Shown here: positions 29,959 through 29,991 of the stretch, piece by piece
Position numbering within the stretch: the first letter of the stretch is position 1
Layout: each line of letters begins with the position of its first letter
Source of the DNA: Pseudomonadota bacterium
Lineage (GTDB): Bacteria; Pseudomonadota; Gammaproteobacteria; Comchoanobacterales; Comchoanobacteraceae
Reading direction: 5' to 3'
Assembly: GCA_036340215.1 (NCBI GenBank)
Contig: JAYYZF010000006.1
Location: 6,228-70,227, forward strand
DNA: 64,000 bases
Position numbers and translations under genes: made by a program
Notes under the pieces: generated by a model
Told to the model about the DNA's origin: nothing
The model's input: only the letters and a program-made list of their open reading frames with translations
Databases searched by the model: none

Positions 29959-29991
29959 CTTAAGGTTTCTTTAAGAAACTAATGTTACATT
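29959..29991 (+). promoter_or_regulatory. PmrA-box-like tandem TTAA element with -10 hexamer, upstream of the 30020 gene
   Basis: cTTAAggtttctTTAAgaaactaatgtTACATT, i.e. TTAA-N7-TTAA-N11-TAnnnT, 28 nt before the ATG. 24/33 identical to 48485-48517. Confidence 0.45.

Follow-up and report, generated by a model that had tools for sequence, protein, structure and literature searches.

The window, the whole 64-kb stretch of DNA analysed here, contains two 33-nt blocks of the same design (sites 1 and 2), both on the plus strand, both intergenic, and each a short distance upstream of a gene (Table 1). In site 1 a C at 29959 is followed by a first TTAA core at 29960-29963, seven nucleotides (ggtttct), a second core at 29971-29974, eleven nucleotides and the hexamer TACATT at 29986-29991. 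An earlier note on this DNA had reported exactly this arrangement, TTAA-N7-TTAA-N11-TAnnnT, at 29959-29991, and on re-reading both the bases and the coordinates are exact; its second copy, at 48485-48517, likewise has the same spacing and 24 of 33 identities by a position-by-position count. The end of site 1 lies 28 nt before the ATG at 30020, with a Shine-Dalgarno sequence between them, and the end of site 2 lies 33 nt before the GTG at 48551, with AGGA at 48541-48544.

The -10 hexamer of both sites belongs to the extended type, because a TG stands one base before it (in site 2 at 48509-48510, giving TGtTATAAT). If transcription begins ∼7 nt after the hexamer, which is the assumption made here, the predicted starts are near 29998 for site 1 and near 48524 for site 2, and the distal and proximal half-sites of site 1 would lie at approximately -39 to -34 and -28 to -23, respectively. 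Site 1 also contains a palindrome, GTTTCTT-T-AAGAAAC (29965-29979), which overlaps its proximal half-site and is missing from site 2 and from all of the related sites described below.

Table 1. Coordinates of the sites and genes discussed, in window positions
Feature	Coordinates	Strand	Basis or remarks
Additional half-site CTTAAT, 24 bp ahead of site 1's distal half-site	29935..29940	+	Sequence
Site 1, candidate 33-nt PmrA-type promoter block, cTTAAGgtTTc-tTTAAG-N10-TACATT	29959..29991	+	Sequence read and full-pattern match
Site 1, distal half-site CTTAAG	29959..29964	+	Matches PmrA half-sites CTTAAG/xTTAAT (PMC3973317)
Site 1, proximal half-site TTTAAG, in 11-bp phase with the distal one	29970..29975	+	Phasing as in the published matrix
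Site 1, extended -10, TGtTACATT	29983..29991	+	Sequence; no -35 partner in sigma-70 scan
Orphan gene downstream of site 1 (252 aa)	30020..30778	+	GC 29.8%; Shine-Dalgarno AGGAG at 30010-14
Upstream paralogue of the gene at 48551, without box	47140..48459	+	33% identity; alignment, sequence
Site 2, twin 33-nt block, cTTAAG-N5-tTTAAG-N10-TATAAT	48485..48517	+	Full-pattern match
Membrane protein gene downstream of site 2 (457 aa)	48551..49924	+	GC 32.7%; lineage-restricted family
Putative icmB/dotO, downstream of icmJ (1004 aa)	59716..62730	-	Position and size
icmJ/dotN	62761..63381	-	NCBIfam NF038221, E=1.3e-71, 240 bits (cut-off 100)
IcmD-like DUF6750 gene	~63412-63804	-	Adjoins icmJ

The full pattern TTAA-N7-TTAA-N11-TAnnnT occurs in the 64-kb window only at sites 1 and 2, compared with an expectation of 0.37 matches, and two or more matches were found in 4 of 100 shuffles of the window. 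The bare core TTAA-N7-TTAA is not itself enriched (5 matches versus 7 expected), and its other three occurrences (28065, 42456 and 56039) lie inside ORFs, so that the absence of further intergenic copies, which the earlier note had claimed from a scan by eye, holds. Since ∼92.5% of the window is coding and only ∼7.5% is non-coding, two co-oriented sites that are both intergenic and at much the same distance from a start codon are unlike the outcome of chance placement.

The repeat had been proposed to take the place of a -35 element, and indeed neither -10 has a sigma-70 -35 partner at 16-18 nt. A terminator scan gave no terminator-like hairpin at sites 1 and 2, and an Rfam search gave no family at either site. 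On these scans, a plain sigma-70 promoter, a terminator and an Rfam element were rejected as the identity of the sites.

Agreement with PmrA matrices and conservation in relatives

The PmrA regulatory element of Dot/Icm-regulon promoters in L. pneumophila and C. burnetii was described by Zusman et al. 2007, as reported in the papers that cite it, and the L. pneumophila matrix of Burstein et al. 2009 has 33 positions, with the form cTTAATatT-N2-cTTAATatT-N7-TAtaaT (PMC2701608, supplementary file 6). Sites 1 and 2 have the same frame as this matrix, with the repeats at matrix positions 1-20 and the -10 at 28-33. Both have two direct cTTAA(T)-type repeats with TTAA cores 11 bp apart, and this spacing, for which PmrA phasing had been claimed, equals that of positions 1 and 12 of the published matrix; both also have a TAnnnT -10 placed 11 nt after the second TTAA, with the box replacing the -35. 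The 33-nt block agrees as well with the Coxiella PmrA consensus, cTTAA-N2-TT-N2-cTTAA, which lies immediately upstream of the -10 (bioRxiv 10.1101/679134).

When the window is scored with the L. pneumophila matrix, sites 1 and 2 rank first and second, at 14.9 and 14.8 bits, values that are within chance for 64 kb: the best match in shuffled sequence averages 14.0 bits, and 46 of 300 shuffles contain two matches of at least 14 bits. The two sites lose score in different places. The box of site 1 obtains 13.6 of 23.4 bits and its -10, TACATT, is poor (1.3 bits); site 2 has a perfect -10 and a box of 7.0 bits, with AA where the matrix wants TT. In both, the proximal TTAA is preceded by T instead of C, and each TTAA is followed by G instead of T.

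The 457-aa product of the gene downstream of site 2 has only seven metagenomic homologues, with 34-54% protein identity, and the contigs of these homologues keep the synteny of the window: paralogue 1, paralogue 2, pgpA, thiL, nusB and nrdR, and later tamA, tamB and the 1004-aa gene. A box of the form cTTAA(T/G)-N5-cTTAAG-N10/11-TAtAAT stands 30-33 nt ahead of the start codon of a family gene in all lineages read, namely L001, L002 (whose box is identical in L003 and L004), L005, L006, L007, L008 and L091. In L006 the box lies before the gene downstream of the homologue and the homologue itself has none; the upstream gene of L004 similarly has none, and the order paralogue 1, box, paralogue 2 recurs in L004 and L006. 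In an alignment of ten upstream regions (alignment A1), no columns are invariant other than those of the two TTAA cores and the G.TA...T of the -10. The C that precedes the proximal TTAA and the G that follows it are near-invariant, as are two A's of the -10. The distal half-site of the relatives is mostly the non-palindromic CTTAAT, in direct orientation and followed by atT as in the PmrA 9-mer.

The sites of these relatives fit the L. pneumophila matrix closely, scoring 21.3-28.7 of a possible 31.2 bits (L008 is weaker, at 10.7), compared with a shuffle-null maximum of 20.2 bits per 64 kb. We find six sites of at least 20 bits in 114 kb of this lineage versus none in 1.5 Mb of control DNA, which consisted of the accC neighbourhoods of 80 other proteobacterial loci. 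Three of the control loci, L024 at 1632 (-), L028 at 2147 (+) and L071 at 6116 (+), carry matches of 17-19 bits to the PmrA matrix, and all three are from uncultured gammaproteobacterial MAGs with 36-41% GC.

A second matrix was built from the related metagenomic sites, with the window sites excluded. On this relatives-only matrix, sites 2 and 1 are the top two matches in the window, at 27.4 and 19.2 bits, respectively. In 500 shuffles, the best match reached 19.2 bits in 4 and the second-best match in 0. There is no phylogenetic footprint for site 1, because the gene at 30020 is an orphan.

Two of the related lineages contain additional copies of the element. A second complete box with its -10 lies ∼215 bp upstream of the proximal one in L001 (2013-2075) and in L007 (84-140), and what remains of the initial codons of the gene comes after it (in L007, ATGGCTAACAACTACAATGGCTAA). 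Judged from sequence, the promoter together with the 5′ end of the gene seems to have been duplicated in tandem. A third CTTAAG is present 14 bp upstream of each box in both lineages.

Downstream genes, the Dot/Icm cluster and the host

The 252-aa product encoded downstream of site 1 has hydrophobic segments in its first 100 residues and Cys pairs in its second half. It has no homologue among 5.8 billion proteins, an exhaustive phmmer search returned only one 99%-identical fragment, and no Pfam family is matched even at E≤10; its single-sequence AF2 model is uninformative (pLDDT 43.5). The earlier note had called this gene RING-like, a label for which we find no support: no RING or U-box Pfam match appears at E≤10, the AF2 model does not help at that pLDDT, and the product has only CxxC and CCxC pairs. 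The adjacent gene at 29356-29901 is also a low-GC orphan, and its product too combines hydrophobic segments with Cys pairs. The two products share only a short CxIC(F/Y)E stretch, and in the product of 29356-29901 the CxxC pairs lie apart with a hydrophobic region between them. For the products of this pair of genes, no family, homologue or usable model was found.

For the family of the 457-aa product, AF2 (pLDDT 70) predicts a membrane protein that is all-helical and ends in a disordered C-terminal tail of ∼70 residues. A PDB fold search with the family model gave no match, with TM-scores below 0.2. In the window pair (47140-48459 and 48551-49924) only the second paralogue carries the box. 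A TTGACA is found upstream of 47140-48459, and the promoter scan paired no -10 with that hexamer. The tandem paralogues of the window, L001, L004 and L006 all have the invariant motif IIGIDCA close to the N-terminus, and their C-terminal tails are polar and variable. Exact-sequence look-ups of the 252-aa, 457-aa and 396-aa window products gave no match.

The GC content of all four genes considered is 29.8-33.6%, compared with 37-38% for housekeeping genes, and low GC has been described for effector genes (PMC2701608). The low-GC, lineage-specific genes downstream of the two sites fit the PmrA-regulated effector genes of that study, and are regarded here as candidates only.

At the right end of the window, icmJ/dotN is followed on the minus strand by a 1004-aa gene, whose identity as icmB/dotO is inferred from position and size because the product has only a weak match to Pfam AAA_10, with no NCBIfam match and no PDB sequence match. 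This gene is in the same position in L001 and in L089, and in L089 icmO, L, K ... J lie upstream. The 3′ end of a further gene runs off the window upstream of the IcmD-like gene; IcmC is also beside icmJ. The part-cluster (59716-64000, -) and tamB converge, a junction that L001 and L089 also have. The icmJ/dotN match shows that the genome has a Dot/Icm type IVB system, whose virulence genes are under the control of PmrA in Legionella and Coxiella.

A search of metagenomes with IcmJ gave relatives at 98, 83, 80 and 75% identity. The cluster of the IcmJ at 80% identity includes NCBI MAG proteins named ‘Legionellales bacterium’, whose MAGs are the closest relatives with a name, and the 203-kb contig of the 83% relative is syntenic with the window, in the order icmO...icmL, icmK, a 1412-aa gene, ...icmJ, the 1004-aa gene, tamB and tamA. 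The naming of this cluster and the icm synteny therefore place the window in an uncultured member of the Legionellales. Three other searches had little to say about the host: a contig search with MltD found no relative among GTDB representatives, the same search of metagenome contigs found one match only, at 30% identity, and a contig search of GTDB representatives with AccC gave 80 loci at 62-69% identity that hold no taxonomic signal because AccC is too conserved. Neither search of the GTDB representatives gave a close genome.

No response-regulator gene was seen among the ORFs of the window, which covers 64 kb only. PmrA has been reported from every Legionella species studied for it (PMC6989116), and in Coxiella it is essential (PMC4117601); by analogy, we would expect a PmrA orthologue in this genome. 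A scan of the 20-kb icm region in a close relative (L089/L090) gave no PmrA-type site, the best match having 10.2 bits.

Elsewhere in the window, a gene for an S1/P1-type nuclease (33599-34429, -; Pfam PF02265, E=1.6e-49) encodes a product with a hydrophobic N-terminus. This gene may be eukaryote-like, because fungi, plants and protists are the better-known sources of S1/P1 nucleases. Rfam also identifies three tRNA clusters on the minus strand, at 25244-25628 (four genes), 41503-41585 (one gene) and 44279-44525 (three genes).

Alternative explanations for the two sites

We considered whether site 2 might be real and site 1 a chance AT-rich look-alike, in which case the gene at 30020 would be transcribed from another promoter or by read-through from 29356-29901. 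The weak -10 of site 1, the lack of any orthologous site, a score of 14.9 bits that falls within the null of the L. pneumophila matrix, and a bare TTAA-N7-TTAA core that is not enriched in the window all agree with this explanation. However, site 1 is the second-best match of the window on a matrix built without it, with a score that the best match equalled in 4 of 500 shuffles and the second-best match never did. It is also intergenic in a window of which only 7.5% is non-coding, and it has the orientation of the next gene, whose start codon follows after 28 nt and has a good Shine-Dalgarno sequence; this distance is in the class of the conserved sites (30-33 nt). Sites 1 and 2 moreover depart from the consensus of the relatives in the same way, with T at position 12, G at 6 and 17, and TGt ahead of the -10. 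We consider a chance origin of site 1 improbable.

The sites might instead be real operators with another reader, either another regulator of the OmpR family that has no link to Dot/Icm control or a repressor that binds, as a dimer, to the palindromic CTTAAG hexamers over the -35 region. Half-site orientation is ambiguous in the window sites because CTTAAG is its own reverse complement, and this ambiguity, like the palindrome within site 1, leaves room for such a protein; the lack of a visible PmrA gene in the window and of a box in 20 kb of a relative's icm region points the same way. Against this stand the relatives, in which the distal half-site is usually the direct, non-palindromic CTTAAT with atT after it, and in which the PmrA matrix of L. 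pneumophila gives scores of up to 28.7 of 31.2 bits; the L. pneumophila CpxR matrix, which is GTAAA-type (PMC2701608, supplementary file 6), is unrelated to the box. The missing -35 argues against a repressor and for an activator. We give a different reader only a small chance of being correct. An element acting at the level of RNA or structure, such as a terminator of 29356-29901 or a leader hairpin, could be read into the short inverted repeat GTTTCTT/AAGAAAC of site 1, but its arms are AT-rich, one base apart and followed by no T-run, the repeat is confined to site 1 among all the sites compared, and both the terminator scan and the Rfam search were empty at the two sites, which makes an explanation of this kind highly improbable.

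A PmrA-type promoter model and its implications

We find that sites 1 and 2 are best explained as activator-dependent (class II) promoters of the PmrA type, and from comparison of the sequences we place the probability of this reading at about 0.7 overall; it is firmer for site 2 than for site 1. The 33-nt block is very probably a promoter that a PmrA-like response regulator activates, here in an uncultured relative of Legionella and Coxiella, and belongs to a kind of element that is already familiar. In the PmrA-type model, the half-sites cTTAAG and tTTAAG, 11 bp apart at approximately -39 to -23 and one DNA turn upstream of the extended -10 (TGtTACATT in site 1 and TGtTATAAT in site 2), would stand in for the -35 that is missing. 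A regulator of the OmpR/PhoB family, presumed to be orthologous to the PmrA of Legionella and Coxiella, would bind the half-sites head to tail as a phosphorylated dimer and recruit sigma-70 RNA polymerase, probably by the class II contacts of other PhoB/PmrA family members, and transcription would then proceed from near 29998 and near 48524. The two promoters would thereby drive the genes at 30020-30778 and 48551-49924, which are low in GC and encode lineage-specific membrane proteins, the products being candidate effectors.

The architecture, although not the half-site, also appears to be that of the PhoB pho box. Pho-box promoters are class II promoters that lack a -35 and have direct repeats with 11-bp phasing, placed ∼10 bp ahead of the -10, but the PhoB half-site is of the CTGTCA type rather than CTTAAG. 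The half-sites of PmrA (BasR) in Salmonella and Klebsiella, CTTAAG and xTTAAT, are 5 bp apart (PMC3973317), and the hexamers and the 5-bp spacer are identical to those found here. The enterobacterial box is bound head to tail by a dimer of the OmpR/PhoB family, as is proposed for the window sites. The two differ in what they control: the enterobacterial PmrA regulon comprises LPS-modification genes (arn/pbgP and pmrC), whereas here the genes encode orphan membrane proteins in a Legionellales host, with no LPS-modification gene after site 1 or site 2 and no Pfam family for the genes that do follow.

The PmrA element of Legionella and Coxiella resembles the window sites in several respects: tandem cTTAA(T/G) repeats 11 bp apart, a -10 placed 11 nt after the second TTAA, no -35, a Legionellales host with Dot/Icm, and low-GC, lineage-specific downstream genes. 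Coxiella has at least 68 PmrA promoter regions (PMC4117601), and a genome with tens of sites would be expected to show a density of about the order seen in the window, approximately 2 per 64 kb. The window sites differ from this element in reading cTTAAG...tTTAAG instead of cTTAATatT...cTTAATatT, with ∼15 of 31 bits on the matrix, and in that no box is found before the icm genes looked at. The departures common to both sites (T at 12, G at 6 and 17) might reflect a co-evolved shift in PmrA specificity. That the PmrA regulon of this lineage is built on lineage-restricted membrane proteins, with both products representing new classes of Dot/Icm substrate, seems to us rather unlikely.

To specialists, a PmrA-type box in this lineage would be expected rather than surprising. 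Its value may be practical, in that PmrA boxes are one of the few handles on Dot/Icm effector genes that need only sequence, and should the box prove functional in uncultured Legionellales, scanning for it would nominate effector candidates in MAGs for genes that have no protein homologues. The genes at 30020-30778 and 48551-49924 are flagged here as candidate members of such a Dot/Icm-associated PmrA regulon. If the PmrA-type reading is true, it would also suggest that this promoter architecture is widespread in the Legionellales, beyond Legionella and Coxiella.
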